A stretch of DNA of 32,000 nt. It comes from Methylorubrum extorquens. GTDB lineage: Bacteria > Pseudomonadota > Alphaproteobacteria > Rhizobiales > Beijerinckiaceae. Below the pieces are notes generated by a model that saw only the letters and a list, made by a program, of their open reading frames with translations, ran no database searches and had not been told where the DNA came from. The position numbers were made by a program, and so were the translations under genes. Positions 5,157 to 25,450 of this stretch are shown here, one piece after another. Position 1 is the first letter of the stretch. Every line of letters begins with the position of its first letter. The stretch is taken from positions 3,990,001 to 4,022,000 of the forward strand of contig LT962688.1 of assembly GCA_900234795.1 (NCBI GenBank), in the 5' to 3' direction.

Positions 5157-6230
5157 CTACTGCGTCAGCCGGTCGTCGATTCCCTTCACGTACCAGTTCA
5201 TGCCGAGGATCATCGGGTCGGGGGCTTGCTCGCCCTCCTTCACCGCGACCGAGCCGTCCTGCTTGAGCACCGGCCCCTGGAACGGGTGGATCTTGCCCTC
5301 GACGATCCCCTTCTTGGTCTCCTCGGCCAGCGCCTTCACGTCGTCGGGCATGTTGGTGAAGGGTGCCAGCACGACCATGCCGTCCTTGATGCCGGCCCAG
5401 GTGTCCCCGCTCTTCCACGTGCCGTCGAGAACGGCCTTGGTCTCGGCAATGACGTAGCCGTTCCAGTCGTCGACGATCGAGGTGAGCTGCGCCTTCGGGG
5501 CGAAGCGGTACTGGTCGGAGGACTGGCCGAAGGCGAGCTTTCCGGCCTTCTCTGCCTCCTGCAGCGGCGCGGCGGAATCGGTGTGCTGGGTCAGGATGTC
5601 GGCGCCCTGGGCCAGCAAGGCCTTGGCCGCCTCCGCCTCCTTGCCGGGATCGAACCACGTGTTCACCCAGACGATCTTGATCTTGATGTCCGGGTTGACC
5701 GACTGCGCGCCGAGCATGAAGGCGTTAATGCCGCTCACGACTTCGGGGATCGGGAAGGAGGCGATGTAGCCGACGGTGCCCGACTTCGACAGCTTGCCGG
5801 CGATCTTCCCGCAGATGTAGCGGCCCTCGTAGAAGCGGGCCGAGTAGGTGGAGACGTTGTCGGCCCGCTTGTAGCCGGTGGCGTGGGCGAACTTCACCTT
5901 GGGGAATTTCTTGGCGACCTTCAGGGTCGGCTCCATGAAGCCGAAGGAGGTCGTGAAGATCAGGCCGGCGCCCGAGCGGGCGAGCTTCTCGATCGAGCGC
6001 TCGCTGTCGGCCTCGGGCACGTTTTCGAGGAAGGTCGTCTCGACCTTGCCGGGCAGCGCCTCGGCCAGCGCCTTGCGGCTGAGGTCGTGCTGGTAGGAAT
6101 AGCCGTAATCGGCGACCGGGCCGACATAGACGAAGCCCACCTTGAGCTTGTCCGCCGCCCGCGCCGGAGCCGCCGCGATGGCCGCGCACAGGAGTGCCCC
6201 GGCCACGCGCGTGACGATGCTGCCCATCAT
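5157..6230 (-). CDS. BMP-family (Med/PnrA-like) ABC transporter substrate-binding protein, orphan copy
   Basis: Start ATG at 6230 gives MMGSIVTRVAGALLCAAIAAAPARA/ADKLKVGFVYVGPVADYGYSYQHD.., a signal peptide plus the conserved BMP N-terminal motif. AGGGG lies upstream. The 445-aa ORF in the track extends upstream as non-coding-looking sequence. Confidence 0.85.
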   Translation of the reverse strand: MMGSIVTRVAGALLCAAIAAAPARAADKLKVGFVYVGPVADYGYSYQHDLSRKALAEALPGKVETTFLENVPEADSERSIEKLARSGAGLIFTTSFGFMEPTLKVAKKFPKVKFAHATGYKRADNVSTYSARFYEGRYICGKIAGKLSKSGTVGYIASFPIPEVVSGINAFMLGAQSVNPDIKIKIVWVNTWFDPGKEAEAAKALLAQGADILTQHTDSAAPLQEAEKAGKLAFGQSSDQYRFAPKAQLTSIVDDWNGYVIAETKAVLDGTWKSGDTWAGIKDGMVVLAPFTNMPDDVKALAEETKKGIVEGKIHPFQGPVLKQDGSVAVKEGEQAPDPMILGMNWYVKGIDDRLTQ

Positions 6231-6566
6231 GAGTGTCTGCCCCTTTTCGACGGCGTTGTCCGCCGCGGCTTGCCGGCGCCGCGCATGGGCGCCCGGGGGA
6301 ATTTCAGAGCAAGACCAGGGCCAGGAGGGGGCGCGGGAGACGCTGAGCGGATGCTGACGCATCCCATCGATGACCATCAGCGGTTCGGCTGGTCTTTGAG
6401 CATGGAGATCAATGCGCCGGTCGGGCGTCAAAGCCATGCTGATCCCGCAATGCCGGGCAGCGGGCCCCTGTGGCGATCGCTGACGCGAGGGCACGCCCGC
6501 GCGCTTGGCAGGCCGTCATCGAGCGCGGCTCGATCCTACGGATCGGGTCGCACGGAGCATCGGACC

Positions 6567-7715: not shown

Positions 7716-9278
7716 CTAATGATGCCCGGCCATGTGGCGGCCGATCACCCCGGCCTCCGCCGCGGCGGCCGGCGTTTCGTAGACGAGGCGTCCGTCCGAC
7801 ATCACGCAAATGCGGTCCGACAGTTCGAGAATCTCGTCGAGATCCTCGCTGATCAGCAGCACGGCGGCGCCGGCGTTCCGCGCCGCCACGATGCGGGAGC
7901 GGATCTCGGCGACCGCCGCGAAATCGAGGCCGAAGCAGGGATTGACGACGATCAGGAGATCGACCGGGTCGGTGAGTTCGCGCGCGAGCACGGCGCGCTG
8001 CACGTTGCCGCCCGAGAGCGTGGCGATCGGCGCCTCCGAGGAGGCGGTCTTGACCTTGAAGCGGGCGATCAAATCCTTCGCCCGCCGGCTCATGGCGCGC
8101 CGGTCGAGCCAGAGGGTCGGGGCACCGGCGGGATCGTCGCCGCGCCGGTCGAAGGCGCGGAAGGCGAGGTTTTCGGCCACCGACATCCGCGGCGCGCAGG
8201 CATTGCGCAGGGGCTCTTCGGGGATGAAACGCACCCGGTGCCGGCGGCTCTGCGCCCGCGTGCCGCGATAGGGCTCGCCCTGCACCACGACGCGCCCGCC
8301 CGTCGCGCGGATCTGGCCGCCGAGCACGTCAGCGAGTTCCTTCTGCCCGTTGCCGGAGACGCCGGCGATGCCGACGATCTCGTGGGCGCGCACGCGCAGA
8401 TCCGCGACATCGATCCGCCGCAGGCCGGAAGTGTCGGTGGCGGTCAGGCCGTCCACCCGCAGGATCTCGCGGGCCGGGTCGGGCTCGCCGACCCGCGCAG
8501 CGATCGTCCGCACGGCACGCTCGCCCACCATCATCGCAGCCATGTCGTCCCGCGATAGCGCGCCGACCGCGCCGCCGCCGACGAGCCGCCCACGCCGCAG
8601 GACGCTGAGGCTGCGGGCGAAGGCTTCGACCTCGCGGAACTTGTGGCTGATCATCAGCACCGTGAGCGCGCCCGCGTCCGCCATGCCGCGCAGCAGGCCC
8701 AGCACCTCCTCGGCCTCCGCCGGCGTCAGCACGGAAGTCGGCTCGTCGAGGATCAGGAACCGGGCCTTGAGGTAGAGCTGCTTGACGATCTCAAGCTTCT
8801 GCCGCTCGCCGGCCGCGAGTTCCGCCACCGGCCGGTCGAGGTTCAGCCGGAACGGCATCCGGGCCATGAAGCCGGCGAGCGCCGCGCGCTCGGCCTTCCA
8901 GTCGAGGATGGCGGGGGCGTCGGCCCGGCCGATGACCAGGTTCTCGGCACCGGTCAGCGACGGCACCAGGGTGAAGTGCTGGTAGACCATGCCGAGGCCG
9001 CGCCCCTGCGCGCCCTTCGGCCCGGTGATCTCGGCCTCGCGGCCATCGACGAGCACCGAGCCGGCGGTGGGCGCGTAGAAGCCCATCACGCATTTGACGA
9101 AGGTCGACTTGCCCGCGCCGTTCTCGCCGAGCAGGGCGTGGAAGCCGCCGGCCTCGATCTTCATCGAGACGTCGTCGAGGGCGGTGAAGCCGCCGAAGCG
9201 CTTCGTCATGCCGACGGTCTCGACCGCAAGGGCGCCGGAGTGGGCGCCGGATGGGACGGGGTGCGCGGAAGCCGCCAT
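7716..9278 (-). CDS. ABC transporter ATP-binding protein, tandem two-domain type (BMP/nucleoside-sugar class), system B
   Basis: 520 aa. First domain: Walker A GENGAGKST, LSAGERQKLEI, ILDEPTS. Second domain: GIAGVSGNGQ, LSGGNVQR. Start ATG 9278 lies 7 nt after the upstream stop. Confidence 0.9.
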   Translation of the reverse strand: MAASAHPVPSGAHSGALAVETVGMTKRFGGFTALDDVSMKIEAGGFHALLGENGAGKSTFVKCVMGFYAPTAGSVLVDGREAEITGPKGAQGRGLGMVYQHFTLVPSLTGAENLVIGRADAPAILDWKAERAALAGFMARMPFRLNLDRPVAELAAGERQKLEIVKQLYLKARFLILDEPTSVLTPAEAEEVLGLLRGMADAGALTVLMISHKFREVEAFARSLSVLRRGRLVGGGAVGALSRDDMAAMMVGERAVRTIAARVGEPDPAREILRVDGLTATDTSGLRRIDVADLRVRAHEIVGIAGVSGNGQKELADVLGGQIRATGGRVVVQGEPYRGTRAQSRRHRVRFIPEEPLRNACAPRMSVAENLAFRAFDRRGDDPAGAPTLWLDRRAMSRRAKDLIARFKVKTASSEAPIATLSGGNVQRAVLARELTDPVDLLIVVNPCFGLDFAAVAEIRSRIVAARNAGAAVLLISEDLDEILELSDRICVMSDGRLVYETPAAAAEAGVIGRHMAGHH

Positions 9279-9285
9279 GGTTGTC

Positions 9286-10005
9286 TCAGCCCATCGCTGC
9301 CAGGATCGCCTCGGACGAGGCCACCGCGCCGAACACGCCGCCCTGCATCGTCACCATCTTCAGCGCCGCCTCGTGGTTGCCCCGGTCGGTGGCGGCGGTG
9401 CCGTCGGAGACGATCACGCATTCGAAGCCGCGGTCGTTGGCCTCGCGCATCGTGGTGTGGACGCAGACATCCGTGGTGATGCCGGTCAGGATCAGGTTGC
9501 GGATGCCGCGCGTGGCCAGGATCAGTTCGAGATCGGTGGCGCAGAACGAGCCTTTGCCCGGCTTGTCGATCACCGGCTCGTCCGGCAGTGGCGCCAGCTC
9601 CGGGATGATCTCCCAGCCCGGCTCGCCGCGCACCAGCACCCGCCCGCAGGGACCGGGATCGCCGATCCCCGCTCCGATCCGGCGCGAGCGCCAGCGCTTG
9701 TTGTCGGGAAGATCCGCGAGATCCGGCCGATGGCCCTCGCGGGTATGGATTACGGGGTAGCCGCTCTTCCGCGCGGCGGCGAGAAGCCGTGCGATCGGCT
9801 CGATCGGCGCGCGGGTCAGGGCGAGGTCGTAGCCCATGGCATCGACGTAGCCGCCCTTGCCGCAGAAATCGGTCTGCATGTCGATGATGACGAGGGCCGT
9901 GGTCTTCGGATTGAGCGAACCGTCATAGGGCCAAGGATAGGGCTCAGCAGCGACGAAGCGGCCGCTTTCGGCGGCAGCGGCGGAGGGGAACGGGATGACG
10001 CTCAT
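9286..10005 (-). CDS. Isochorismatase-like cysteine hydrolase, BiuH/TrtA-like (copy A)
   Basis: 239 aa. Asp-Lys-Cys triad contexts are [18 protein letters not shown] and [12 protein letters not shown]-terminal PYPWPYDG motif. ATGA start/stop overlap with the formamidase gene (10002-10005). Confidence 0.85.
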
Positions 10006-11030
10006 TCCGCCGCCTCCCGCGCGGCCGTCGTCTGGCCCTCACCGTAGGCGCGGGTCGGCTCTGGGAAGCCGCACGAGGTGCCATCGGTCACCTTCACCGT
10101 CTCCTCCCACGGCACGCGGTAACGGCCGGCGGCGAGGTCGTGCATGTAGGTGTAGGGGCAGTCGTTCGCGCCGCCCTTCACCGCCGTGTAGCCGCGGTGA
10201 CCGAGCTGGTAGATGTTGTTCTCGACGCCCCAATGCGCCCGCGCCTCGCGGACCAGATCCGGCCGCACCTCGGCGGTGATGATCTCGTCGACGCGACCCG
10301 TGGTGCTGTGGGCGATGACGGTGCCGTCGAAGTTGACGATCATGCCTTCGCCCATGGAGTCGAAGGTGCCGTCCGAGCCGCACATGCAGACATTGGCGGT
10401 CACCATCAGGTTGCAGAAGGCGTTCGACTGGTTGGTGAAGCGCCAGGATTCGCGGATCGGGGCGGTGTAGCCGGCCGTGCGGATCATGATCTCGGCGCCC
10501 TTGTAGGCGCATTCGCGCGCCATCTCGGGGAACATGCCGTCGTGGCAGATGATGAGGCCGATCTTGGCGCCCTTCGGGCCCTCGATCACCGGGATGCCGA
10601 GATCGCCGGGCTCCCAGGGCTCGACCGGCACCCAGGGATGCATCTTACGATAGTAGAGCTTCAACGCGCCGGTGTCGTCGATGATGAGGCCGGAATTGAA
10701 CGGATTGCCGTTCGGGTTGGCCTCCATGATCGAGAAGCAGCCCCAGATCCGGCTGTCGCGGCAGGCCTGTTTGAAGGCCGCGACCTCGGGGCCGTCGAGC
10801 GTGCACAGGATCTGAGGGTTGGTGTCCATCGACAGGCCGTGCAGGGCGTATTCGGGGAAGACGACGAGATCCATCGTCGCGAGGTTGGCGCGCGCCTTGG
10901 CGACCATCGCGACGATGCGGTCGGTCTGTGCCTTGAGGTCAGCCCTGGTGGCCACGTTCGGAAGCTGGAGCTGCACGAGGCCGAGCACGACGCCGTTCGG
11001 GGATTTGTTCAGTCCGCCGAGACCGTTCAT
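10002..11030 (-). CDS. amiF: Formamidase (AmiF-type aliphatic amidase, nitrilase superfamily)
   Basis: 342 aa. Glu-Lys-Cys triad contexts are [18 protein letters not shown] and [21 protein letters not shown]. The C-terminal [36 protein letters not shown] closely follows my recollection of Helicobacter AmiF, and fits it better than AmiE. AAGGAA Shine-Dalgarno (SD) sequence upstream of ATG 11030. Confidence 0.85.
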
Positions 11031-11039
11031 GGGGATTCC

Positions 11040-11960
11040 TTACTTCAGGGACAGCTCGCCCGGCGCGCCGGCCAGCGCCCGGTCGGGCGAGGAGGTGGCG
11101 ATCAGGAGCGCCAGGGTGAGGATGTAGGGAGCGGCGTAGAACAGGTAGTAGCCCTGCGAGATGCCGACCGATTGCAGGGCGGGCCCGAGTGCGCCGGCCC
11201 CCCCGAACATCAGGGCGGCGCCGAAGCAGGCGAGCGGGTTCCAGCGGGCGAAGATCACCAGCGCCACCGCCATCAGACCCTGCCCGGACGAGATGCCCTC
11301 GTTCCAGGAGCCGGGATAGTAGAGCGAGAGATAGGCGCCACCGATCCCGGCGAGCACGCCGCCCGCGGCGGTCGCCAGGAGCCGCACGCGGTCGACGTCG
11401 TATCCCATGGCCCGTGCCGCATCCGCGCTGTCGCCGACCACGCGCAGGATCAGGCCGGCCTTGGTGTTGCGGAACGCCCACCACAGCAACACCGCCAGCG
11501 CCGCGCCGGCCAGGAACAGCACGTTGACCCGCAACGCCGCCTGCACCTGCGGCAGGTCGGACCAGAAGCCGAAGGGAATCGCCGGCAGCGGCGGGGCCGA
11601 GGGCTGGATGAAGGGCTTTCCGAGGAAGAAGGCGAGGCCTGAGCCGAACAGCATCAGCGCGATGCCGATCGCCACGTCGTTGACGCGGGGGAAGCGGCAG
11701 ATGAAGCCGTGCAGCAGGCCGAAGGCGCCGCCCGCGAGCCCCGCGACCGCGACGCCCGCCCACGCGCTCCCGCTCAGCACGGCGGTGGCGTAGGCCGACA
11801 TCGCCCCGAAGACGAGGATGCCCTCCAGCCCGAGATTGATGCGTCCCGAGCGCTCGGTGATGGTCTCGCCGAGGCTCACGAACAGGAACGGCGTCGAGAC
11901 GCGGATCGCGCCGCCGACCACGGCGAGCAACACGGTCCCCAGGCCGAGATCGTCGCTCAT
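11040..11960 (-). CDS. ABC transporter permease (BMP/nucleoside-type, NupQ/YufQ-like), system B
   Basis: 306 aa, polytopic and hydrophobic. N-terminal VSTPFLFVSLGETITERSGRINLGLEG motif, typical of this permease family. Confidence 0.85.
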   Translation of the reverse strand: MSDDLGLGTVLLAVVGGAIRVSTPFLFVSLGETITERSGRINLGLEGILVFGAMSAYATAVLSGSAWAGVAVAGLAGGAFGLLHGFICRFPRVNDVAIGIALMLFGSGLAFFLGKPFIQPSAPPLPAIPFGFWSDLPQVQAALRVNVLFLAGAALAVLLWWAFRNTKAGLILRVVGDSADAARAMGYDVDRVRLLATAAGGVLAGIGGAYLSLYYPGSWNEGISSGQGLMAVALVIFARWNPLACFGAALMFGGAGALGPALQSVGISQGYYLFYAAPYILTLALLIATSSPDRALAGAPGELSLK

Positions 11961-11982
11961 TCCGTCGGCCCCCTACCGGCTC

Positions 11983-13140
11983 TCACGACACCGCTCCGCG
12001 CTTCTCGGCCCAGAGATGCGGGCTGAACAGCTTGAAGCGCCCGTAGAGCGTCTCGCTGACGAGCACGACGAGGAAGAGCAGCCCTTCGAGCACGAGCACC
12101 GTGGCGTCGGGCAGCTGCATCCGGCGCTGGATCAGGCCGTTCGAGGCCTCGATGCCGCCGAGCAGGAAGGCCACGGGCAGGATCGCGAGGGGATTGTGGC
12201 GGGCGAGGAAGGCGACGAGGATGCCGGTATAGCCGAAGCCCGCATTGAGCGAGGCGTTGGCGTTGCCGTGCACCGCCGCGACCTCGAAGAAGCCGGCCAG
12301 CGCCGCGCAGGCGCCGCCGAGCGCGGTGAAGCCGACGACGAGCCGCCCGACCGGCAAGCCCTGGATCTGTGCGGCCCGCACGTTGCCGCCCGCGATGCGC
12401 GCAGCAAAGCCGATCGTGGTGCGCTCGGTGAGCCCGTAAGCGGCCAGGCAGGCGAGAATGCCGATGCCGAGGCCCCAGTGAACCTCGAGGCCCGGCATGG
12501 GGCCGACCGCGAACGCCTCGCCGATCGGCCAGGTGGAGGGCTTGTTGAGGCTGCCCGCGTCGCGCAGCAGGCCCTCGATCAGATGGTTCGAGAGCGCGAT
12601 CGCGATGTAGGACATCAGCAGGCTGGCGATGGTCTCGTTGACGCCGCGATAGGCGCGCAGCGCGCCGACGGCGCCGATCCAGGCTGCCCCGGCCGCTGCC
12701 GCGGCGAGCGCCATCAGCGGCACCGCGAGCATCGGGGGAGAACCCTGAAGCGGCTGTGCCGCGGCCGCCGCGGCCACGCCTCCGAGCACGATCGCGCCCT
12801 CGCCGCCGATCACCACGAGTCCGAGCCGGGCGGGCAGCGCGACGCAGAGCGCGGCGAGGAGCAGGGGCGCGGCGCGCTGCAGGCTGTTCTGGAGGGCGAA
12901 GGGCGAGCCGAAGCCGCCGCGCCAGACGAGGTCGAGGAAGGCGAGCGGGCTCTTTCCGAGGGCGAGCAGGAAGAGGGAGAACAGCAGGAAGCCGGCGATG
13001 ACCGCTCCGACCGGGATCGCCAGGGCCTCGGCCCGGCGCGCGAGCCATGCCCGAGCCTGGAGCGAGGCCGGCGGATGGTCCGGGCCGCTCACGGCGCTCT
13101 CGACGAGCGGCAGCGCGGGGGCGGTGGTGTCAGCGGCCAT
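11983..13140 (-). CDS. ABC transporter permease (BMP/nucleoside-type, NupP/YufP-like), system B
   Basis: 385 aa, polytopic. Conserved ...LGLVVIGGEGAIVLGG... and ...TGILVAFLARHNPL... segments. It lies 22 nt upstream of the next permease gene. Confidence 0.85.
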   Translation of the reverse strand: MAADTTAPALPLVESAVSGPDHPPASLQARAWLARRAEALAIPVGAVIAGFLLFSLFLLALGKSPLAFLDLVWRGGFGSPFALQNSLQRAAPLLLAALCVALPARLGLVVIGGEGAIVLGGVAAAAAAQPLQGSPPMLAVPLMALAAAAAGAAWIGAVGALRAYRGVNETIASLLMSYIAIALSNHLIEGLLRDAGSLNKPSTWPIGEAFAVGPMPGLEVHWGLGIGILACLAAYGLTERTTIGFAARIAGGNVRAAQIQGLPVGRLVVGFTALGGACAALAGFFEVAAVHGNANASLNAGFGYTGILVAFLARHNPLAILPVAFLLGGIEASNGLIQRRMQLPDATVLVLEGLLFLVVLVSETLYGRFKLFSPHLWAEKRGAVS

Positions 13141-13313
13141 CGCTCAGTCCTCGCCCGCGGAGCGGCAGAAACCGTGCCAGGTCGACGCTCACCACCCCGC
13201 CCCGAAGCGCAGGCCCGTCCGCGCCGCGCGACGGCAGGACGGATGGTGCGCGGGAGCCGTTCTCGGGGGGAGCCCGGGATCCGCTTGCATCCGGCGGGAT
13301 GGCGGGAGCCGCA

Positions 13314-14453
13314 TCAGGCCGAGCCCTTCACGCCCTCGACGAGGTAGTTGGTCTTCTCCAGCTCGATCGCGTTCTCGGCGAACGCCTTGCCGGGGCCGGC
13401 GATCTCGTTGCCCTTGTTGTCCTTGAGCGGGCCCTTGATGATGGCGAAGCCGCCCTTCATCATCTCGGCCTTGACCGCGTCGGCGTTGCGGCGTGCTTCC
13501 TCGGACACCGCGGGCCCGTAGGGGCTCATCTTCACGAAGCCGTCCGGCAGGCCGCCGCGCACGAAGTTCGGGGGCGCCTTGCCCGCCTGCATGTCGGCGA
13601 CGAAGCCCTTGTAGATCGAGGCCCAGTTCCACTCGGCGCCGGTCAGGTACTTGTCCTTGGCGAGTGCCGATTGGTCGGCGTGGTAGCCGCAGACGAAGGC
13701 CCCGCGCCGCGCCGCGGTCTCGACCACGACCTTGGGACCGTCGACGTGGCAGGTGATCACGTCGGCGCCGCCGTCGATGAGCGCGTTGGTCGCCTCCGCC
13801 TCCTTGACCGCGAGCGACCACTCGCCGGTGAAGATCACCTGCAGGGTGATGGACGGATCGACGCTGCGCGCGCCGAGCAGGAAGCCGTTGACGTTGTTGA
13901 GCACCTGGGGGACCGGCTTGGCGGCGACGAAGCCGAGCCGCTTCGACTTCGAGGCGTGGGCGGCAACGATGCCGTTCAGGTACTGGCCTTGGGCGATGTA
14001 GCCGAAATACGAGCCGGCGTTCTTCGGGTTCGCCTCGGTCCAGAGGCCGCCGCAATGGCGGAACTGCACCTTCGGGTTCTTCTTGGCCTCGATCAGCACG
14101 TGCGGATCGAAGTAGCCAAAGGACGTCGGGAAGACGAGGCTCGCGCCGTCCAGGTTGATCATGCTCTCCATGGTCTTCTGGACGTCGGTGGTCTCGCGGA
14201 CGTTCTCCTCCTCGACGACTTGAAGGCCGGGGATCGCCTTAAGGGCGGCCGCACCTTGGGCGTGGGCTTGGTTGTAGCCGTAATCGTCCTTCGGCCCGAC
14301 ATAAATGAACCCGACGGTGAGCGGGCCGGCGGCCCGGGCGCGGCCGAAGGGCAGCGCGCCGAGCGAGAGGGCGGCCGCACCGCCGAGAAGATGTCTGCGG
14401 GAGAAAGGATGGGCTGACACGAGGCGTGATCCGTCTTTCCGGGCCGGCGGCAC
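13314..14453 (-). CDS. BMP-family ABC transporter substrate-binding protein with a twin-arginine-like signal
   Basis: ..HPFSRRHLLGGAAALSLGALPFGRARA/AGPLTVGFIYVGPKDDYGYNQAH... contains an SRRxLL Tat-type motif followed by the BMP N-terminal motif. The start is GTG 14453 or an internal GTG at 14420 (VSAHPFSRR). Confidence 0.85.
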   Translation of the reverse strand: MPPARKDGSRLVSAHPFSRRHLLGGAAALSLGALPFGRARAAGPLTVGFIYVGPKDDYGYNQAHAQGAAALKAIPGLQVVEEENVRETTDVQKTMESMINLDGASLVFPTSFGYFDPHVLIEAKKNPKVQFRHCGGLWTEANPKNAGSYFGYIAQGQYLNGIVAAHASKSKRLGFVAAKPVPQVLNNVNGFLLGARSVDPSITLQVIFTGEWSLAVKEAEATNALIDGGADVITCHVDGPKVVVETAARRGAFVCGYHADQSALAKDKYLTGAEWNWASIYKGFVADMQAGKAPPNFVRGGLPDGFVKMSPYGPAVSEEARRNADAVKAEMMKGGFAIIKGPLKDNKGNEIAGPGKAFAENAIELEKTNYLVEGVKGSA

Positions 14454-16695: not shown

Positions 16696-18303
16696 TCAAT
16701 GGACCGGCGCGGCGGTTCGGATCGCAGGCGCCGCCGGAGGCTCGCCCGTCTGCTGCTCCGGCTCGCCGGCCCCGCCCATCAGCAGCCCCAAAGCCGCGCG
16801 GCTGGTCGCAGCGGTCGGGACGGGCGGCGAGAGAGCGCGCCGGCATGCAGGACGGCGATAGAATCGGCGATCTCGAACAGCTCGTCGAGATCCTGGCTGA
16901 TCACGACCACCGCGGCACCGCGGCCGGCGAGATCGAGCACCGCCTGCCGGATATGGGCGGCGGCGGCGGCATCGACGCCCCAGGTCGGCTGGTTGATGAC
17001 GAGGATGCCCGGCTCGGCCAGGATCTCGCGCCCGACCACGAATTTCTGCAGGTTGCCGCCCGAGAGCGTGCCGGCCGCCGGGTCTGGGCCGGCGCCGCGC
17101 ACGTCGAAGGCGTCGATCACCCGACGGGCGAGCGCCCGCGCCGCGCCGAGCCGCAGCAGGCCCAGCCAAGTGAGCGGCGCCGTGGCGTGGCGGGAGAGCA
17201 GCGCGTTCTCCGACAGGGTCATGGACGGGACGGCGGCGTGGCCGTTGCGCTCCTCGGGCACGAAGGCGGCCCCGAGCCGGCGCCGGGCATTGATGCCGAG
17301 CTGGCCCACCGCCCGGCCGTCGAGGCGCACCGCCGCGGCCGCCGGGGCCCGGCTCTCGCCGGAGAGGACGTCGAACAGCTCTGCCTGCCCGTTGCCGGCG
17401 ATGCCGGCGATGCCGAGGATCTCCCCGCCCGCAACGGAGAGCGCGATGTCCCGCAGCGGCGTCCCGTGCAGGCCGGGCGCGGGCCGCGACAGGCGGTCGA
17501 GCACGAGGCGCTCGGCGCGGCCCGCGCGGGCCGCCTTCGGCCGCACCTCGCTCACCCCCCGTGCCGACCATCATCGCCGCGAGCGAGCGGGCGGTCTCCG
17601 CCTGCGGATTGCAGCTGCCGACGACCCGGCCGCCCCGCAGGATCGTGGCCCGGGTGCAGAGGCGGCGCACCTCGTCGAGCCGGTGGGAGATGTAGAGCAC
17701 GGCGCGGCCCTCATCGCGCAGGCGTTCCAGCACCGAGAACAGCACCTCCGCCTCGCCCGGCGTCAGCACCGAGGTCGGCTCGTCGAGGATCACGAGCTTC
17801 GGGTTCTGAAGCAGGCAGCGCACGATCTCGATGCGCTGGCGCTCGCCCGCCGAGAGCGACCAGACCGGCCGCGCGGGATCGAGATGCAGGCCGTAATCCG
17901 CTCCGAGCCGGGCGATCCGCTCCGCCAGCGCCCGGCCCGTCAGCCCGGCGGGCATGACGAGGGCGATGTTCTCGGCGACCGTCAGATTCTCGCACAGCGA
18001 GAAGTGCTGGAACACCATGCCGATGCCGAGCGCCCGCGCGGCCTCGGGGTTGGCCAGCCGCACGATGTCGCCCTGATGCGTGACGACGCCCTCCGTCGGC
18101 TCCAGGAGGCCGTAGAGGATCTTCATCAGGGTGGATTTGCCGGCGCCGTTCTCGCCGAGCAGGGCGTGGATCTCGCCGGCGCGGATCTCCAGATCGACCT
18201 GATCGTTGGCGGTGAAGGCGCCGAAGCGCTTGACGATGCCGTAGGCCCCGAAGAGCGGGGTCGGGCCTTCCCGCGAGGCCGGCGCAGCGGATGCGGCCGC
18301 CAT
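16696..18303 (-). pseudogene. ABC transporter ATP-binding protein (two-domain), system A, with two apparent compensating frameshifts
   Basis: Domain 1 (GENGAGKST, LSAGERQRIEI, ILDEPTS) is in the frame of ORF 16696..19044 and starts at ATG 18303 (TGATG overlap with the deaminase stop). After ..AAMMVGT the sequence continues sensibly only in the frame of ORF 16779..17555 (VSEVRPK..GIAGIAGNGQ..LSGGNLQK..). The C-terminus LSPPVPTAATSRAALGLLMGGAG..* returns to the first frame. The shift sites are the C6 run at 17545-17550 and about 16836-16848. Total length is 1608 nt, divisible by 3. Confidence 0.7.
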
Positions 18304-19667
18304 CACGCCGTTCCGAACAGGGTGCGTGCCAGCCGGCCGTGCTCCTCGCGCAGGCGTCCCGTTTCGATGCCGACGGGCTCCCCGTCGATAACTCGCCAGT
18401 TCCCGGCCACCATCACCCGGTCCGCCCGGTGAGCGCCGCACAGGACCAAAGCCGCGAGCGGGTCGTGGGCGCCGGAGAAGCGGAGTTCGTCGAGGGTGAA
18501 CAAGGCCAGATCCGCCTCGCGGCCGGGTTCGATCCGTCCGATATCGCTGCGCCCGAGGCAGGCGGCGGAGCCCTCCGTCGCCCAGCGCAGGGCATCGAGA
18601 TGGGTCACGGCTTCCGCACCGTAGGTCAGGCGGTTGATCATCAGGGCGTGGCGCACGCCCTCCGTCAGATTCGAGCTGTCGCTCGAGGCCGAGCCGTCGA
18701 CGCCGAGGCCGACGGGGGAGCCCGCGGCCTCCAGCTCGCAGGTGCGGCACTGGCCCGAAGCCAGCACCATGTTCGAGGCCGGGCAATGGCACACCCCGAC
18801 GCCGGCGCCGCCGAGGCGCTTCACCTCGTCGTCGTTGAAGTGGATGCCGTGGGCGAGCCAAGCCCGCCGCGTCATCCAGCCAACCTCTTCGAGATAGTCC
18901 ACCGGACGCTGCCCGAACGCCTCCAGGCAGAAGGCGTTCTCGTCGAGCGTCTCGCCGAGATGGGTGTGCAGGCGGCAATCGTGGCGCTCGGCGAGCGCGG
19001 CGCTCTCGCGCATCAGCCGCTTGGTAACGTTGAACGGCGAGCACGGAGCCAGCCCGATCTGCACCATCGCGCCGGGTTCGGGATCGTGGAACAGGCCGAG
19101 CACCCGCTCGCTGTCGGCCAGGATGGTGTCGTCGTCCTGCACCAGCGTCTCGGGCGGCAGGCCGCCGTCCTTCTCCGACAGGCTCATCGAGCCGCGGGTG
19201 ACGAAGGCGCGGATACCGAGGGAGCGCGCCTCCTCGAACTGGATGTCGACGGCCGCCTCAAGCCCTCTCGGGAACAGGTAATGGTGGTCGCCCGCCGTGG
19301 TGCAGCCCGACAGCAGCAGCTCCGTATAGGCGAGCCGCGTCGCCAGCCGGAAGGCGTCCGGCGTCAGCCGCGGCCAGATGGTCGAGAGCGCCTTCAGCCA
19401 GGGAAAGAGCGGCTTGTTGATCGCGATCGGGTGCGCGCGGGTGAGCGTCTGGAAGAAGTGGTGATGCGTGTTGACGAGGCCGGGGATGACGACGTGGCGC
19501 GAGGCGTCGAACGTCTCGTCGACCGGGCTCGCGGGCAGGGCGCCCGCGTCCACCACTTCGGCGATGCGGGTGCCCTCCACCACGAGCCCGCCGCCGGCCC
19601 CGTCGGCGAGGATCGCCAACGGATCGCGGAGCCAGAGACGGCGGGGGCGGGTGCTCGATTCCATCAT
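18303..19667 (-). CDS. Amidohydrolase-superfamily deaminase, 8-oxoguanine deaminase-like
   Basis: 454 aa. LWLRDPLAIL.., metal-binding GLVNTHHHFFQTLTR, HTHLGE, WLAHGIH, GLGVDGSASSD. From memory it is collinear along its whole length with Pseudomonas PA0142-type 8-oxoguanine deaminase. Confidence 0.8.
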   Translation of the reverse strand: MMESSTRPRRLWLRDPLAILADGAGGGLVVEGTRIAEVVDAGALPASPVDETFDASRHVVIPGLVNTHHHFFQTLTRAHPIAINKPLFPWLKALSTIWPRLTPDAFRLATRLAYTELLLSGCTTAGDHHYLFPRGLEAAVDIQFEEARSLGIRAFVTRGSMSLSEKDGGLPPETLVQDDDTILADSERVLGLFHDPEPGAMVQIGLAPCSPFNVTKRLMRESAALAERHDCRLHTHLGETLDENAFCLEAFGQRPVDYLEEVGWMTRRAWLAHGIHFNDDEVKRLGGAGVGVCHCPASNMVLASGQCRTCELEAAGSPVGLGVDGSASSDSSNLTEGVRHALMINRLTYGAEAVTHLDALRWATEGSAACLGRSDIGRIEPGREADLALFTLDELRFSGAHDPLAALVLCGAHRADRVMVAGNWRVIDGEPVGIETGRLREEHGRLARTLFGTA

Positions 19668-19692: not shown

Positions 19693-20689
19693 TCAGAAGA
19701 TGTGGAAGGCGACGCCGGCGAGGAAGCTCTTCTCCTCGGTGCCCTTGAAGGTCGCGGTCTCCTGGTTGCCGAACTTGTTCAGCCAGTACTGGAAGCCGAT
19801 GAAGACATCGACCTTGTTGGGCTGATCGTAGGCGAGCTTGCCGAGATCGAGCACGAGGTTGGTGCGCGACAGGAATTCCAGCCCGCGCGGCGGGTTGAAC
19901 GCGAAGGCGGCGGGGTTGTTGCTGATGCCGCGGCCCTTGGGCAGGACGATGTTGTTGAAGCCGGCCAGCGTCAGCGGCAGACCGGTGAAGGTCAGCGGCA
20001 GGCTGTAGACGATCTCGAATTCGGGGACCGTGTTGAAGCTCTGGTCGCGGTCGGGCTGGGTGTTGAAGCCGTTGCGGTTCCATTCCTTGTAGGCGTGGAC
20101 CGACAGGTTCAGGAAGCCGGCCGGCACGTCGAAGGCGAAGTTCAGGCCGCCGACGACGTCGCGCTTCTTCGAGCCGAAGGCGTCGTTCTGCGAGTTGGCG
20201 TCGAAGCCGTAGGAGAGCGAGACCTCCTTGACGATGCCGGGGACCATGAAGGCCTTGGTGCCGGTCAGGGCGTTCAGGCTGAGCGTGCCGCGGTAGAGGC
20301 CGTAGGCTTCGGTGTTGCCGTAATCGGCGAAGGTCGGGATGCCACCGGGCGTGTTGGTCGTACCGGCCGGAAACTGAGAACCCGATTGCAGGATGTCGAG
20401 GGTGAAGAAGTTCGTGCCGTAGGCCCAGGCATCCGCGTGCGAGATGTTGAGGATGTGCTTGGGCGCCTCGCGCGAGCGGAAGCTGCCGTCCGGCCGCTGG
20501 ATCTGGATGCCGGGCGTGACGGTCGGGAACTGGTAGCGATAGCTGATCTGCGTGTCCGCGAAGAGGAAGAACGGCACTTCCTTCGCGGCCACCGCTTCGG
20601 GGGGCCCGCTTCTCCCCGAGATCCGCCGCGACCGCCGTACCCACCGTGAAGAGCGACAGCGCCACCGCCGCAAGTCCCCGAACCGACAT
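19693..20689 (-). pseudogene. Outer-membrane beta-barrel channel, tentatively Tsx/OmpK-like, with one apparent frameshift after the signal peptide
   Basis: ATG 20689 (GGGGAGAA SD) gives MSVRGLAAVALSLFTVGTAVA/ADLGEKRAP in one frame. The barrel, ..EAVAAKEVPFFLFADTQISYRYQ....FLAGVAFHIF* (alternating pattern, terminal Phe), is in another frame. The junction is the G6 run at 20599-20604. Length is 997 nt, one base more than a multiple of 3. Confidence 0.6.
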
Positions 20690-21196
20690 TCTTCGTTCTC
20701 CCCGACCATCCGTGTGGTCGGGCGGCAGCAACGGGGGTGCCAACACAAAACAAGCCGCAGCCCTCGGCGCCTATGCGGCAGCACAAGTCACAAATCCGCA
20801 ACACATTCTCGGCGGTGCCGGGCTGGGCCGCTTAGTGTATGGCCGGACCAGGACGCCTCTTAGAACCGGTGGGAGTTGGAGGATGAGCCTTTATCGCGCC
20901 GGGGTAATCCGTCGAACCTTCTCAGGCCGCCCACCGTCCGCTCATGCTGCGCATTTCATGGACGTGATGCTGGCAGGGCCGCGGAGTGAAAGCCGTTTGC
21001 GCGCACAGCCGTTCGCACCGTGCGGCCGGAGCCGGCGGCGTGCCGCCGTGGACTGCACAGGCCGACGCCAGCCTGACGACACTTCGTGCATCGGCGACGA
21101 TGATCGGGCACGATTTTTCGGGAGCCGAGCGCCATCATCGCGGCGGCCCGGACACGCTCCGGCCTCCGGCCCCGCGCGATCGCTCCGAGGTAGCCC

Positions 21197-21877
21197 ATGC
21201 CCGCCCCGCAGCCCCTTCTCGACGCCGAACCTGCACCCCTGCCGTTCGATCCGGCCCGGACGGCCCTCGTCGTCATCGACATGCAGCGCGACTTCCTCGA
21301 ACCCGGCGGCTTCGGCGAGAGCCTGGGCAACGACGTCTCGCTGCTCGCCGCCGCGGTGCCGCCCGCCCGCGCCCTGCTGGCCGCCGCGCGCGCGGCCGGC
21401 CTCCTCGTCGTCCACACCCGCGAGGGACACGCGCCCGATCTCTCGGACGCCCCGCCGGCCAAGCGGGAGCGCGGCGCGCCGACGGCGCGGATCGGCGAAC
21501 CGGGCCCGATGGGCCGCATCCTGATCCGCGGCGAGCCCGGCCACGACATCATCCCCGAACTGGCGCCCCTCGACGGCGAGCCGGTGATCGACAAGCCGGG
21601 CAAGGGCGCCTTCTACGCGACCGGGCTCGCGGCTCTGCTGGAGGCGCGCGGCATCGAAACCCTGATCGTCTGCGGCGTGACGACGGAGGTCTGCGTGCAC
21701 ACCACCGTGCGCGAGGCCAACGACCGCGGCTATCGCTGCGTCGTCGTCGCCGATGCCTGCGGCTCGTACATTCCGGCCTTCCACGAGGCGGGCCTTGCCA
21801 TGATCAAGGCCCAGGGTGGCATCTTCGGCTGGGTCTCGCGCTCCGCAGCGGTGATCGCCGCCCTTGGCCAAGCGTGA
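21197..21877 (+). CDS. Isochorismatase-like cysteine hydrolase, BiuH/TrtA-like (copy B)
   Basis: 226 aa. [29 protein letters not shown]. Alignable over its full length with copy A (shared TREGHxPDL.., [26 protein letters not shown], REANDRG). Confidence 0.85.
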
Positions 21878-21974
21878 GGCGCTCCTGAACGACGGAACGC
21901 ACCGCGGACCGGAGTGCCGGCCGTGGCGCGGCCATTGCACCGGACGCGAAGCGCCCGATCCTCAGGGGGAACCG

Positions 21975-22178
21975 ATGACCGATCACGCCGCGGAGACGCC
22001 GACGCCCGATCTCGACGCCTATGCCGCGGCGGCAGCCCCCCTGCTGGGCCTCACCCTCGATCCGGCCTGGACCGGGGCGGTCGTCGCCCACCTGCGGGTG
22101 CTCCACGCGGCGGCGGCGCTCGTCGGCGGGTTCCCGCTGCCCGACACCGCCGAGGCGGCGCCGGTCTACACGGCGTGA
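21975..22178 (+). CDS. AtzG-like / HpxX-like small protein (DUF4089, GatC-related)
   Basis: 67 aa. AGGGGGA SD upstream of ATG 21975. MTDHAAETPTPDLDAYAAAAAPLLGLTLDPAWTGAVVAHLRVLHAAAALV.. has the size and pattern of the small partner subunit of AtzE-type amidases. Its stop overlaps the amidase GTG (GTGA at 22175-22178). Confidence 0.65.
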   Translation: MTDHAAETPTPDLDAYAAAAAPLLGLTLDPAWTGAVVAHLRVLHAAAALVGGFPLPDTAEAAPVYTA

Positions 22179-23590
22179 GCGCGACGACGGATTGGAGCCT
22201 CGCCCCGGCCTCCGACATCGCCCGGGCCGTGTCGGCGGGGACGGTCGGCGCCCGCGACGTGGTCGCCGCCGCGCTGGATCGTATCGCCCGCATCGATCCG
22301 GCGGTGAACAGCTTCACCGAGCGCTTGGCCGAGCGCGCCACCGCCCGCGCCGCGGAGCTCGACGCCGCGCGGACCCGGGGCGACAGGCTCGGCCCCCTGG
22401 CCGGGGTGCCCTTCGCGGTCAAGAACCTGTTCGACGTCGCCGGGCTTCCGACGCGGGCGGGCTCGCGGATCAATCGCGAGCGGGCGCCGGCCACCCGCGA
22501 TGCCGCCCTGATCCGGCGGCTGGAGGCGGCGGGCGCCGTCCTGGTCGGGACGCTTGGCATGGGCGAGTACGCCTACGACTTCACCGGCGAGAACATCCAC
22601 GACGGCAACACCCACAATCCGCACGCCCTCGGCCACATATCCGGCGGCTCGTCCGGCGGCTCGGGCGCGGCGATCGCCGCCGGCCTGGTGCCGCTCGCGC
22701 TGGCCTCGGACACCAACGGCTCGATTCGGGTGCCCGCCGCCTTCTGCGGCTGCTTCGGGCTCAAGCCCACCTACGGGCGGTTGAGCCGGGCCGGGAGCTT
22801 CCCCTTCGTCGGCAGCCTCGATCATCTCGGGCCGATGGCGCGATCGAGCCGCGATCTCGCCCTGGCCTACGACGCGATGCAGGGGCCCGATCCCGAGGAT
22901 CCCGCCATGGCGTCCCGCCCGGCCGAGCCCGCGGCTCTGGACCTCGACCGGGGCGTCGCGGATCTTCGCATCGCGGTGGCCGGAGGCTACTTCGCGCAAG
23001 GGGGCGACCCGGAGGCCTTCGCCGCCGTCGCGCATGTCGCCCGCGCGCTGGGAGCGCGCTGCAGCGTCGTGATCCCGGAGGCGGCCCGCGCACGGGCGGC
23101 GGCCTACCTCATCACGGCGGCCGAGGGCGCCGCGCTGCATCTCGACCGGCTGCGCAGCCGAGCCGGCGACTTCGATCCGGCGGTGCGCGACCGGCTCATC
23201 GCCGGAGCGATGCTGCCCGCCCCCTTCGTGGAACGGGCGCAGCGTTTCCGCCGCTGGTATCGCGACGCCGTGCTGGCGCTGTTCCGCGAGGTCGATGTGA
23301 TCCTCGCGCCGAGCACGCCGGTCCGGGCACCACGCTCCGGCCAGACGACCTTCGTCCTCGACGGCGTTGAGTTGCCGGTGCGGCCCAATATCGGCGTGTT
23401 CACGCAGCCGATCTCGTTCATCGGCCTGCCCGTGGCCGCGGTGCCGGTCTGGCTCGACGGAGGCTTGCCGCTCGGCGTGCAGGTCATCGCTGCGCCCTGG
23501 AACGAGGCGCTCTGCCTGCGGGTGGCGCATCACCTCGAACGCGAGGGTGCGGTCCGGGCGCCGGTCGCGACCGTGAAGGACACGCGATGA
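22175..23590 (+). CDS. AtzE-family amidase (amidase-signature, GatA-like)
   Basis: 471 aa from GTG 22175. Catalytic contexts are PFAVKNLFDVAG (Lys), GGSSGGSGAA (cis-Ser) and ASDTNGSIRVPAAFCG (nucleophile Ser). It sits between AtzG-like and AtzH-like genes, with overlapping start/stop codons on both sides. Confidence 0.85.
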   Translation: MSATTDWSLAPASDIARAVSAGTVGARDVVAAALDRIARIDPAVNSFTERLAERATARAAELDAARTRGDRLGPLAGVPFAVKNLFDVAGLPTRAGSRINRERAPATRDAALIRRLEAAGAVLVGTLGMGEYAYDFTGENIHDGNTHNPHALGHISGGSSGGSGAAIAAGLVPLALASDTNGSIRVPAAFCGCFGLKPTYGRLSRAGSFPFVGSLDHLGPMARSSRDLALAYDAMQGPDPEDPAMASRPAEPAALDLDRGVADLRIAVAGGYFAQGGDPEAFAAVAHVARALGARCSVVIPEAARARAAAYLITAAEGAALHLDRLRSRAGDFDPAVRDRLIAGAMLPAPFVERAQRFRRWYRDAVLALFREVDVILAPSTPVRAPRSGQTTFVLDGVELPVRPNIGVFTQPISFIGLPVAAVPVWLDGGLPLGVQVIAAPWNEALCLRVAHHLEREGAVRAPVATVKDTR

Positions 23591-23994
23591 TCATCGACGA
23601 TCCCGCGGTGAAGGCTGAGGTCGAGCGGGTCTTCGCGACCTACGAGGCGGCGCTCGTGAGCAACGACGTCGCGACGCTCGAACGGCTGTTCCACGACGAT
23701 CCCCGCACGATCCGCTACGGCGCGGCGGAGAACCTCTACGGCATGGACGCGATCCGCGCCTTCCGCCGGGCGCGGCCCTCGCAGGGCCTCGCCCGCGACC
23801 TCGCGGGCACCGTCATCACCACCTTCGGCCGCGACTGCGCCGTGGCGATGACGCTGTTCCGGCGCGAGGGCGCCCCCGGCCGCGTCGGACGCCAGAGCCA
23901 GACCTGGCTGCGCTTTCCCGACGGCTGGAAGGTGGTGGCGGCCCATGTCAGCGTCATCGACGACGCTCCCGGTGAGGGCGCGAGCGGCGCTTGA
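23587..23994 (+). CDS. AtzH-like / HpxZ-like NTF2-fold protein (DUF3225)
   Basis: 135 aa. There is an ATGA overlap with the amidase stop. VERVFATYEAALVSNDVATLERLFHDDPRTIRYG..QTWLRFPDGWKVVAAHVS is the characteristic SnoaL/NTF2-like DUF3225 pattern. Confidence 0.75.
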   Translation: MIIDDPAVKAEVERVFATYEAALVSNDVATLERLFHDDPRTIRYGAAENLYGMDAIRAFRRARPSQGLARDLAGTVITTFGRDCAVAMTLFRREGAPGRVGRQSQTWLRFPDGWKVVAAHVSVIDDAPGEGASGA

Positions 23995-24030: not shown

Positions 24031-24062
24031 ACGTCAGTGGGCTTGGACGTCAGTGGGCTTGC
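24031..24062. repeat. Tandem 16-nt duplication spanning the stop codon of the NCS2 permease gene
   Basis: ACGTCAGTGGGCTTG occurs at 24031-24045 and again at 24047-24061. The unit contains the last codons and the TGA of the permease. Confidence 0.85.
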
Positions 24063-25450
24063 GCGACCTCGGCCTGACGGATCGCCGCCTCACGGGATTC
24101 CGCTCGGTCGCCGAATCCATTGAAGAACAGGTTCAGCCCCACCGCCGCGATCGCGGCGAGCAGAATGCCCGATTCCAGCAGCGGATGCAGCGCGTGCGGC
24201 ATCTGCTTGAAGAAGTTCGGCGCGACGAGCGGGATCATGCCGAAACCGACCGAGACCGCGACGACGAACAGGTTGTTGCGGTTGCGCGCGAAATCGACGC
24301 CGCCGAGGATGCGCGTGCCGGTCGCGCCCACCATGCCGAACATCACGAGGCCGGCCCCACCGAGCACGCATTGCGGCACGGCCTCGACCAGGGCCGCGAG
24401 CTTCGGGACCAGTCCGAGGCCGAGCATGATGAAGCCCGCGGTCACCGTGACCCAGCGCGAGCGGATGCCGGTGACCCCGACGAGCCCGATATTCTGCGAG
24501 AACGAGGTGTAGGGAAACGTGTTGAAGATGCCGCCGATGACGGTGCCGAGCCCGTCCGCGCGCAGGCCCCGCGTCAGCCGCCGCTCGTCGACCGGATCGG
24601 CAGTGATCTGCGACAGGGCCAGGAACATCCCGGTCGATTCGATCATCACGACGATCATCACGAGGCACAGGGTGACGACCGAGACCGGATCGAAGCTCGG
24701 CCAGCCGAAGGCGAAGGGGCGCACCATATCGAACCAGGGCGCCGCGGCGACGCGGTCGAGCTCCACCAGCCCGGCAAAGCCGGCCAGCACCATGCCGAGC
24801 GCGATCCCGATCAGCACCGAGGCCGAGGCGACGAAGCCCGTGGCGTAGCGGGTGATCGCGAGGATCGCGCAGAGCACGAAGGCCGCGATGCCGAGATAGA
24901 CGGGGGCGCCGTAATTCGGGTTGCCGACGCCGCCGGCGGCCCAGTTCACCCCGACCCGCATCAGCGAGATGCCGATGACCAGAATGATGGTGCCGGTCAC
25001 GACCGGTGGGAACAGCGGCAGGAGGCGTCCGATCACCGGTGCGGCGATGAGGCCGAACAGGCCGGAGGCGATGACGGCGCCGTAGATGCCGGTGAGGCCG
25101 ATCGCCGGGTTCGTCCCCATGGAGAGCATCGGGCCGACGGCCGCAAAGGTGACCCCCATCATCACCGGCATGCGGATGCCGATGCCGGGCAGGCCCCAGC
25201 TCTGGATCAGCGTGACGATCCCGCAGGCGAACAGGTCGGCGCTGACCAGCATGGCCACCTGCTCGGGCGGCAGCTTGAGCGCCCGTCCGATGATGAGCGG
25301 GATCGCCACGGCGCCCGCATACATCACGAGCACGTGCTGCAGCCCGAGCAGGCCGAGGGCCGCGGGGGGAACCCGTTCCTCGGGCTTGAGGGGCACCGGA
25401 CCCTCGATCTCGGCCGCGGAATCCGGCTGGGAAGGCGCCATCAACACCAT
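24050..25450 (-). CDS. Nucleobase:cation symporter-2 (NCS2) family permease (xanthine/uracil/urate type)
   Basis: 466 aa, polytopic. LGLQHVLVMYAGAVAIPLIIG near the N-terminus and the NCS2 signature-like VPQCVLGGAGLVMFGMVGATG. Confidence 0.9.
   Translation of the reverse strand: MVLMAPSQPDSAAEIEGPVPLKPEERVPPAALGLLGLQHVLVMYAGAVAIPLIIGRALKLPPEQVAMLVSADLFACGIVTLIQSWGLPGIGIRMPVMMGVTFAAVGPMLSMGTNPAIGLTGIYGAVIASGLFGLIAAPVIGRLLPLFPPVVTGTIILVIGISLMRVGVNWAAGGVGNPNYGAPVYLGIAAFVLCAILAITRYATGFVASASVLIGIALGMVLAGFAGLVELDRVAAAPWFDMVRPFAFGWPSFDPVSVVTLCLVMIVVMIESTGMFLALSQITADPVDERRLTRGLRADGLGTVIGGIFNTFPYTSFSQNIGLVGVTGIRSRWVTVTAGFIMLGLGLVPKLAALVEAVPQCVLGGAGLVMFGMVGATGTRILGGVDFARNRNNLFVVAVSVGFGMIPLVAPNFFKQMPHALHPLLESGILLAAIAAVGLNLFFNGFGDRAESREAAIRQAEVAQAH

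Follow-up and report, generated by a model that had tools for sequence, protein, structure and literature searches.

A four-gene unit on the plus strand of a 32,000-nucleotide (nt) stretch of the Methylorubrum extorquens chromosome (contig LT962688.1, positions 3,990,001 to 4,022,000, hereafter the window; G+C content 65-75%) comprises a cysteine hydrolase gene, trtA (21197..21877), followed by genes of the atzG (21975..22178), atzE (22175..23590) and atzH (23587..23994) types, and is read here, with moderate confidence, as an operon that scavenges nitrogen from triuret (carbonyldiurea). The original prediction, made from the sequence of this stretch, had described these genes as a ureide-hydrolysing module, and its gene identities and coordinates were upheld, as the four products match PF00857, PF13318, NF006631 and PF11533, respectively, all far above the cutoffs. 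The same set was called independently in four NCBI Methylobacterium/Methylorubrum genomes, and the product of the first gene, of 226 amino acids (aa), is identical, residue by residue, in CP021054.1, CP073633.1 and two leaf isolates.

This first product is an isochorismatase-like cysteine hydrolase (PF00857, E 4e-49), and the earlier label of BiuH/TrtA-like held for the family and proved too broad for the enzyme, which every sequence test available assigns to TrtA, the triuret hydrolase, rather than to BiuH or to a generic member of the group. In a search of solved structures, TrtA (6XIX) was the top match (298 bits, gapless), against 249-259 bits for the BiuH structures, while the identity to the Herbaspirillum TrtA reached 66% and the score against the NCBIfam BiuH model, 283 bits, fell under the cutoff of 370. 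In the characterised TrtA, the catalytic triad consists of D24, K129 and C162, the ligand is contacted by F29, E72, K132, T158 and Q202, and the consensus differs from that of BiuH at F35, N41, A134, E160, Y187 and I205 (PMC7948467). The window protein agrees with TrtA at all 14 of these sites, with the equivalents of the Asp-Lys-Cys triad kept in its isochorismatase fold. The signature is also identical in the R. johnstonii TrtA, the product of the gene named trtA in the same paper (PMC7948467), despite only 61% identity to the characterised enzyme, and 80 further relatives keep it too, apart from a single-residue deviation in each of L008, L076 and the truncated open reading frame of L079.

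The assignment is aided by the fact that the window holds both paralogues, cleanly separated by this signature. The second, biuH (9286..10005, minus strand), lies 11 kb from trtA, on the opposite strand and in a separate operon, and is a bona fide biuret hydrolase paralogue (NF050097, 424 bits vs. a cutoff of 370; PDB BiuH 6AZO, 392 bits), with the signature DFYYEKKSTDCTQV of the R. leguminosarum BiuH and the BiuH states Y, Y, S, D, T and V at the six discriminating positions. Neither this gene, with the formamidase and BMP-type ABC transporter genes of its operon, nor the 8-oxoguanine deaminase gene described below figured in the original prediction.

The second gene of the unit, with an ATG start at 21975, encodes a 67-aa GatC-like small subunit (PF13318, formerly DUF4089; 57 bits vs. 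24), the direct match of which to the AtzG of plasmid pADP-1 (6C62_C) is weak (E 0.012). It lies directly upstream of the atzE-like gene, and a complex of the two products is predicted. The third product is an amidase-signature protein of 471 aa (NF006631, 742 bits vs. 461; TIGR02715, 694 vs. 426), in which the motifs AVK83NLF, GGSSGGS (157-163) and GS183IR are present. The profile searches thus place the amidase within the AtzE family and the small open reading frame within DUF4089, the two placements that the original prediction had singled out as those on which it might fail. The fourth product (135 aa, NTF2-fold; PF11533, or DUF3225, 200 bits) is a predicted 1,3-dicarboxyurea decarboxylating hydrolase. 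The pocket of AtzH is formed by Y22, R46, R63, R66, R73, F94, R96, Q106 and Q108 (PMC6219798), and all nine residues are conserved in the window protein, which would provide it with the arginine-rich pocket expected for a dicarboxylate substrate.

The earlier view of four translationally coupled genes stood in part. The 4-nt overlaps between atzG and atzE (GTGA, 22175-22178) and between atzE and atzH (ATGA, 23587-23590) are in the sequence, but the stop codon of trtA ends at 21877 and the ATG of atzG begins at 21975, so that only two of the three junctions overlap and an untranslated gap of 97 nt (21878..21974, plus strand) parts trtA from atzG. This spacer, seen in the sequence and in the gene calls of the four genomes, ends in a GGGGGA ribosome-binding site, and the segment 21870-21985 has a predicted folding energy of -51 kcal/mol, a raw value without a shuffled-sequence baseline. 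The four genes are presumably co-transcribed. According to the map of open reading frames, a divergent intergenic region (20785..21196) separates trtA from a minus-strand array of uptake and catabolism genes and is presumably the location of the promoter or promoters; scans for promoters, terminators and Rfam families came back empty, with no sigma-70 consensus or Rfam match in this region, and no regulator gene adjoins it.

The product of TrtA was shown to be 1-carboxybiuret, which undergoes spontaneous decarboxylation (half-life about 20 min), and the activity of TrtA on the other substrates tested was reported as at most 0.5% (PMC7948467). AtzEG is a known 1-carboxybiuret amidase (PMC7948467, PMC6219798), and AtzH converts 1,3-dicarboxyurea into allophanate (PMC6219798). 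Because the product of TrtA is the substrate of AtzEG, triuret can be proposed as the substrate of the module, which the original prediction, understating the case, had left as unknown. For this organism we infer the following steps. TrtA would take the terminal amide off triuret to give 1-carboxybiuret and NH3, and the AtzE-AtzG heterocomplex would then deamidate 1-carboxybiuret to 1,3-dicarboxyurea and NH3, ahead of the spontaneous decarboxylation to biuret. AtzH would convert 1,3-dicarboxyurea into allophanate and CO2, and the allophanate would pass to an unlinked allophanate hydrolase or decay to urea. Such a hybrid route would bypass biuret, and the BiuH encoded 11 kb away may salvage the biuret that leaks from it. 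The triuret itself would come from the non-enzymatic oxidation of urate, in line with proposals in the literature, and the precursors of urate may be provided through the 8-oxoguanine deaminase, the xanthine permease and the two BMP-type ATP-binding cassette (ABC) transporter systems of the window.

The association of trtA with atzGEH was surveyed in the 80 closest TrtA relatives, using contigs from one genome per species, with the homologues of the relevant enzymes mapped at each locus and linkage defined as a position within 8 kb of trtA. Genes for both AtzE and AtzH are linked to trtA in 12 of the 80 loci, and the allophanate hydrolase gene atzF is also linked in 12, eight of which are loci with atzE and atzH. 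If one atzGEH copy per genome were placed randomly, the linkage would be expected in about 0.3% of the loci (P ~ 6e-17, an estimate that ignores shared ancestry). The same association is found on two plasmids, from Terrarubrum and Microvirga, both of which also carry atzF.

The gene order differs among the lineages, with at least four arrangements. The order trtA-atzG-atzE-atzH is found in the window and in M. adhaesivum, whereas M. thuringiense has a membrane protein (permease) gene between trtA and atzGEH. In the Chelatococcus reniformis locus, profile searches confirmed the order atzG-atzE-trtA-atzH-atzF, and the Terrarubrum plasmid has trtA-membrane protein (permease)-atzF-atzG-atzE-atzH. 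Several metagenome-assembled genomes present divergent trtA/atzGEH layouts. In 59 of the 80 genomes (e.g., L066:8743-10326 and L009:8719-10311), trtA is followed directly by the gene of a multi-pass membrane protein (about 530 aa), which is absent from the window; the protein matches no Pfam or NCBIfam family, is labelled a "regulator" by PGAP in Terrarubrum and is regarded here as a candidate for the transport of triuret.

These arrangements bear on the possibility that the genes are neighbours without a shared pathway, in which case triuret would be degraded by TrtA, spontaneous decarboxylation and BiuH (9286-10005), and AtzGEH would act on an unrelated amide. The BiuH gene in the window, the half-life of carboxybiuret (PMC7948467), the 97-nt gap after trtA and the occurrence of atzGEH in many other contexts (PMC6219798, as well as M. 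radiotolerans, M. durans and M. symbioticum) are all in keeping with this explanation, which is nevertheless improbable, given that the linkage recurs in 12 of the 80 loci, in several orders and far above chance, with trtA lying between the atzE and atzH genes of Chelatococcus, and that BiuH, while linked to trtA in eight of the 80 loci, is found in just one of the 12 loci with atzE and atzH.

A further point against it is provided by the cupin gene (PF12973) that follows trtA in the R. johnstonii 3841 pRL10 cluster, which, judged from its position, would encode TrtB, the carboxybiuret decarboxylase. Homologues of this cupin occur only in the TrtA loci that have BiuH and never together with atzE or atzH, so the two are mutually exclusive, and the window contains none. 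The identification of TrtB as a protein of the AtzH family was considered and rejected, as the cupin gene is the only unassigned small gene beside trtA on pRL10. At the position of the cupin, an AtzH-like gene without an AtzE partner was observed in Ideonella (L102:6980-7381) and in P. oryzihabitans (L101:6983-7390), within operons of the BMP-ABC/BiuH/TrtA(/AtzF) type. The proteins of these two loci have lost the pocket residue Arg66 and, in one case, also Arg96, which would be compatible with a substrate that has a single carboxylate, such as carboxybiuret, and they may have replaced TrtB without being homologous to it.

The survey also bears on the standard cyanuric acid pathway of the atzDGEHF type, which would require atzD and atzF to lie just beyond the window. 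Although the homologues of AtzG, AtzE and AtzH have here the same order as on pADP-1, this explanation is very improbable, since AtzD is absent from the window, from the 10-kb flanks in four related genomes and from all of the 80 TrtA loci, and since trtA occupies here the position that atzD has on pADP-1. As the original prediction had stated, no homologue of AtzD or AtzF is found in the 32-kb window, and its concern that they might lie just outside was answered by the related genomes, where neither is found within 10 kb on either side.

A more serious alternative is that the AtzG-, AtzE- and AtzH-like proteins are of the HpxX/Y/Z type and convert oxalurate through N-carboxyoxamate into oxamate, in allantoin or oxalurate catabolism, with the TrtA-like enzyme feeding another ureide (e.g., oxalurate amide) or being unrelated. 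Neighbour-joining trees with bootstraps were built for AtzE and AtzH. A homology search with AtzE returned only Methylobacterium proteins, and no diversity was gained from it. The window AtzE falls in a clade with 95% bootstrap, all members of which are linked to trtA and/or atzF, and outside the separate clade (100% bootstrap) of the ggt-linked enterobacterial HpxY, and it is 55% identical to the pADP-1 AtzE (6C62, 504 bits) vs. 52% to the Klebsiella HpxY. At the columns that are fixed but different in the pADP-type AtzE and HpxY, the window protein has 33 AtzE states and 14 HpxY states. Columns of this kind cluster at residues 97-101, which read S-x-I-N-R in AtzD- and TrtA-linked proteins and A-x-L-L-S in HpxY. 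The oxamate amidohydrolase HpxW (ggt) is encoded neither in the window nor in any of the 80 TrtA loci, while a ggt homologue was found in the Klebsiella, Serratia and Acidithiobacillus loci. Allophanate hydrolase, which would have no role after oxamate, is usual in the linked loci, and its presence in eight of these 12 and on both plasmids fits allophanate, not oxamate, as the product. The retention of all of the residues for triuret specificity is likewise at odds with another ureide as the substrate, given the low activity of TrtA on other compounds (PMC7948467).

The AtzH side is ambiguous. The window protein passes the NCBIfam HpxZ model, and its top PDB match is 2RCD, not AtzH, but the same model captures the authentic AtzH of pADP-1 as well and is therefore unable to separate the two; it was rejected as a discriminator, as were the pocket residues of AtzH, which are the same in both. 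The characterised AtzH of pADP-1 (L087:6001-6390), together with its counterparts in many plasmid records, is called "oxalurate catabolism protein HpxZ" by RefSeq/PGAP, and the "equivalog" model NF033625, which does not separate the two functions, possibly spreads a wrong name. An Acidithiobacillus caldus plasmid (L099:2874-9600) carries genes for a ureidoglycolate lyase, a ring-opening amidohydrolase (AtzD/barbiturase family), XdhC, AtzG, AtzE, AtzH and ggt; the triad can thus have AtzD-like as well as HpxW-like genes beside it, and the line between the AtzD-linked and the ggt-linked groups is blurred accordingly.

A number of points weigh against the triuret reading. The window AtzH is 62% identical to the Klebsiella HpxZ vs. 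54% to the pADP-1 AtzH, and the Klebsiella protein has the identical nine pocket residues. The deep nodes of both trees have bootstraps of 20-60%, and the relations among the AtzD-, ggt- and TrtA-linked groups are unsupported. The 33:14 count may reflect only branch lengths, as the enterobacterial branch is longer, and we know of no AtzE residues that are diagnostic for 1-carboxybiuret vs. oxalurate. Sequence models cannot tell AtzE and AtzH from HpxY and HpxZ of the oxalurate type.

Gene context adds to these points. The atzGEH orthologues of M. radiotolerans, M. durans and M. symbioticum (AtzE identity 76-79%) lack a nearby trtA and adjoin either genes of peptide-type ABC transporters or a gene for a peptidase M20; in M. 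symbioticum this peptidase gene is directly upstream of atzGEH, like the Hpx layout with an allantoate amidohydrolase (PMC6219798). Conversely, the closest TrtA relatives (L007 and L008) have no atzGEH nearby, and on E. coli ColV plasmids the TrtA-like genes adjoin allFGH-allK, the genes of another oxalurate system. The plasmid p1ColV5155 of E. coli APEC IMT5155 (L103:896-8106), for example, encodes a TrtA-type hydrolase with the full signature, 67% identical to that of the window, followed in the operon by genes for DUF2877, FdrA and DUF1116 (AllH, AllF and AllG), a carbamate kinase and a cytosine permease. Matches of this type were found in 77 plasmid records of E. coli, most of the plasmids being from poultry strains, and the operon hints that, in a uric-acid-rich niche, the products of TrtA or oxalurate may be handled by a phosphorolytic route. 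In addition, oxalurate, like triuret, arises from the oxidation of urate (PMC11782772).

As for the route itself, no homologue of the allophanate hydrolase AtzF is encoded in the 32-kb window, with allophanate hydrolase genes shown elsewhere in the related Methylorubrum genomes only, and the BiuH gene in the window means that the biuret route is also open. The activities of all four proteins are predicted, on the support of sequence and linkage. The atzGEH modules without trtA, the trtA genes without atzGEH, the ColV operons and the origin of oxalurate from urate together make a role in oxalurate catabolism a serious rival, albeit an unlikely one. As a single NH group is all that distinguishes oxalurate from carboxybiuret, one enzyme set might handle both.

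The proposal of triuret as the substrate agrees with the purine-catabolic neighbourhood of the operon. Convergent with atzH, as had been predicted, is the gene of an NCS2 xanthine permease of the pbuX type (24050..25450, minus strand; TIGR03173, 528 bits vs. 414). The divergently transcribed array upstream of trtA includes the 8-oxoguanine deaminase gene (18303..19667, minus strand; NF006055, 668 bits vs. 532), the product of this enzyme being urate. Triuret is yielded by urate oxidation (PMC7948467), and the earlier judgement that the substrate is a natural ureide linked to purines, rather than part of a xenobiotic cyanuric acid pathway, is considered right. The order of the deaminase gene, an outer-membrane protein gene and trtA is kept in the Methylobacteriaceae relatives L007-L009. 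The first of these loci, from an uncultured Methylobacterium (L007:7993-14831), has the closest TrtA relative (89% identity), and the genes of a LysR regulator, an adenine deaminase and xanthine dehydrogenase stand beside its trtA in place of atzGEH, which ties trtA to purine oxidation independently of atzGEH.

The outer-membrane-protein-like gene (19693..20688, minus strand) is frameshifted in the window. In the relatives, its product has 331 aa, a signal peptide and a C-terminal Phe, whereas the window sequence has a 1-nt insertion near 20604 (six Cs vs. five in L001 and L002) that takes the signal peptide out of the reading frame, and the gene is either a pseudogene or the result of a homopolymer sequencing error. 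The product has no Pfam match, and a homologue with 30% identity adjoins atzT on pADP-1.

The second paralogue, biuH, belongs to an accessory minus-strand operon (7716..14453) in which Pfam and NCBIfam models identified a BMP-family binding protein (13314-14453), two permeases (11040-13140), a formamidase (10002-11030) and an ABC ATPase (7716-9278), the latter downstream of biuH. This is the order of the biuH/atzD/trtA cluster on pRL10 of R. johnstonii 3841 (BMP binding protein, permease, permease, formamidase, BiuH, AtzD, ATPase, TrtA and cupin), without the atzD, trtA and cupin genes. Formamidase genes adjoin trtA or biuH in seven of the 80 related loci. A second BMP-family binding protein (5157-6494, minus strand) is 52% identical to a pADP-1 BMP-family protein, over the portion of the latter that is encoded in L087; the gene of this pADP-1 protein adjoins the atzD operon and presumably is that of AtzT. 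In the AtzT structure, guanine is reported to have been retained in the binding site (PMC6834077), which suggests that the 5157-6494 protein is involved in purine uptake.

The plus-strand gene at 26094-30992 encodes a protein of 1632 aa (1545-1806 aa in related genomes) with an N-terminal amidase-signature domain that covers only positions 7-246 of the 445 of the Pfam model, followed by autotransporter-type PATR repeats and HYR/Ig-like domains. It does not represent an allophanate hydrolase. An AMP-binding enzyme gene lies at 419-1978 (plus strand), and a single long open reading frame at 2066-4432 (plus strand) combines creatininase-family and X-Pro dipeptidyl-peptidase S15 (CocE/NonD-type) domains; a Roseomonas plasmid (L090) likewise has creatininase and CocE/NonD genes in the vicinity of AtzH-like ones.

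AtzEG and AtzH have been described as enzymes of the pathway for cyanuric acid derived from herbicides, and atzGEH clusters without atzD and atzF are widespread, with an unknown natural substrate (PMC6219798). The linkage with TrtA gives a natural source of the known substrate of AtzEG, which makes the origin of atzGEH directly testable, and it provides a candidate natural substrate for the orphan modules, as well as a plausible evolutionary precursor of the herbicide-pathway operon. Tentatively, it may be that the role of AtzE, AtzG and AtzH before herbicides, at least in the Alphaproteobacteria, was to process 1-carboxybiuret made from triuret by TrtA, as a third, biuret-free ureide branch through which nitrogen is regained from purines damaged by oxidation (8-oxoguanine to urate, triuret and allophanate), and that the s-triazine operon of pADP-1 arose when atzD replaced trtA before an existing carboxybiuret module. 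The predicted second route from triuret to allophanate would avoid biuret, a potential cellular dead end. As triuret is both a product of urate oxidation and an impurity of urea fertilisers, such a route is relevant to how plant-associated bacteria cycle nitrogen. It matters for annotation as well, since genes of this kind are now labelled "HpxZ", "biuret hydrolase" or "GatA". The component families (TrtA, AtzE/AtzG and AtzH/HpxZ) are already known, and what is new is their combination, of which we found no description: a search of the available literature for trtA together with atzE, atzG or atzH returned no account of a trtA-atzGEH cluster or of this route from triuret.

Among the known systems, the TrtA-TrtB-BiuH-AtzF pathway of Herbaspirillum sp. 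BH-1 and Rhizobium leguminosarum/johnstonii 3841 (Tassoulas et al. 2020, PMC7948467) shares its first enzyme with the window (66% identity and the same signature), which also has BiuH, the formamidase and the BMP-type ABC transporter in the pRL10 order. The window operon differs from the TrtA-TrtB-BiuH operon, however, because it has no cupin and BiuH is encoded elsewhere: trtA stands outside the biuH operon and heads atzGEH, with no atzD or atzF in the window, and carboxybiuret is predicted to be deamidated rather than decarboxylated, so that biuret is bypassed.

The Klebsiella HpxW-HpxX-HpxY-HpxZ system forms the oxalurate branch of purine catabolism, a function assigned to it by genetic inference. 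It has a homologous triad of small subunit, amidase and NTF2-fold protein behind a hydrolase gene, likewise in a purine setting (HpxY 52% and HpxZ 62% identical). The lead gene of the window encodes a TrtA-type cysteine hydrolase, whereas that of Klebsiella is the ggt-family HpxW, and the relatives of the window unit carry allophanate hydrolase, where HpxWXYZ has an oxamate amidase. The window operon is distinguished from this module by its lack of HpxW and by the position of its amidase outside the HpxY clade.

The window locus also belongs to the orphan atzGEH clusters without atzD or atzF that were catalogued "in unique genetic contexts", including Methylobacterium (PMC6219798). No TrtA-type neighbour is named in the main text of that survey, TrtA having been found two years later.

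Finally, the atzDGEHF operon of pADP-1 in Pseudomonas sp. ADP (Esquirol et al. 2018, PMC6219798) has the same order of atzG, atzE and atzH, overlapping or closely spaced, with AtzE 55% and AtzH 54% identical, the AtzH pocket conserved, and homologues of the BMP and outer-membrane proteins near both loci. Without AtzD and AtzF, the window operon does not represent the atzDGEHF pathway. Its locus is chromosomal and lies among purine catabolism genes, whereas pADP-1 is a herbicide catabolic plasmid, and the predicted producer of carboxybiuret is TrtA, a cysteine hydrolase acting on linear triuret, in place of the ring-opening amidohydrolase AtzD.

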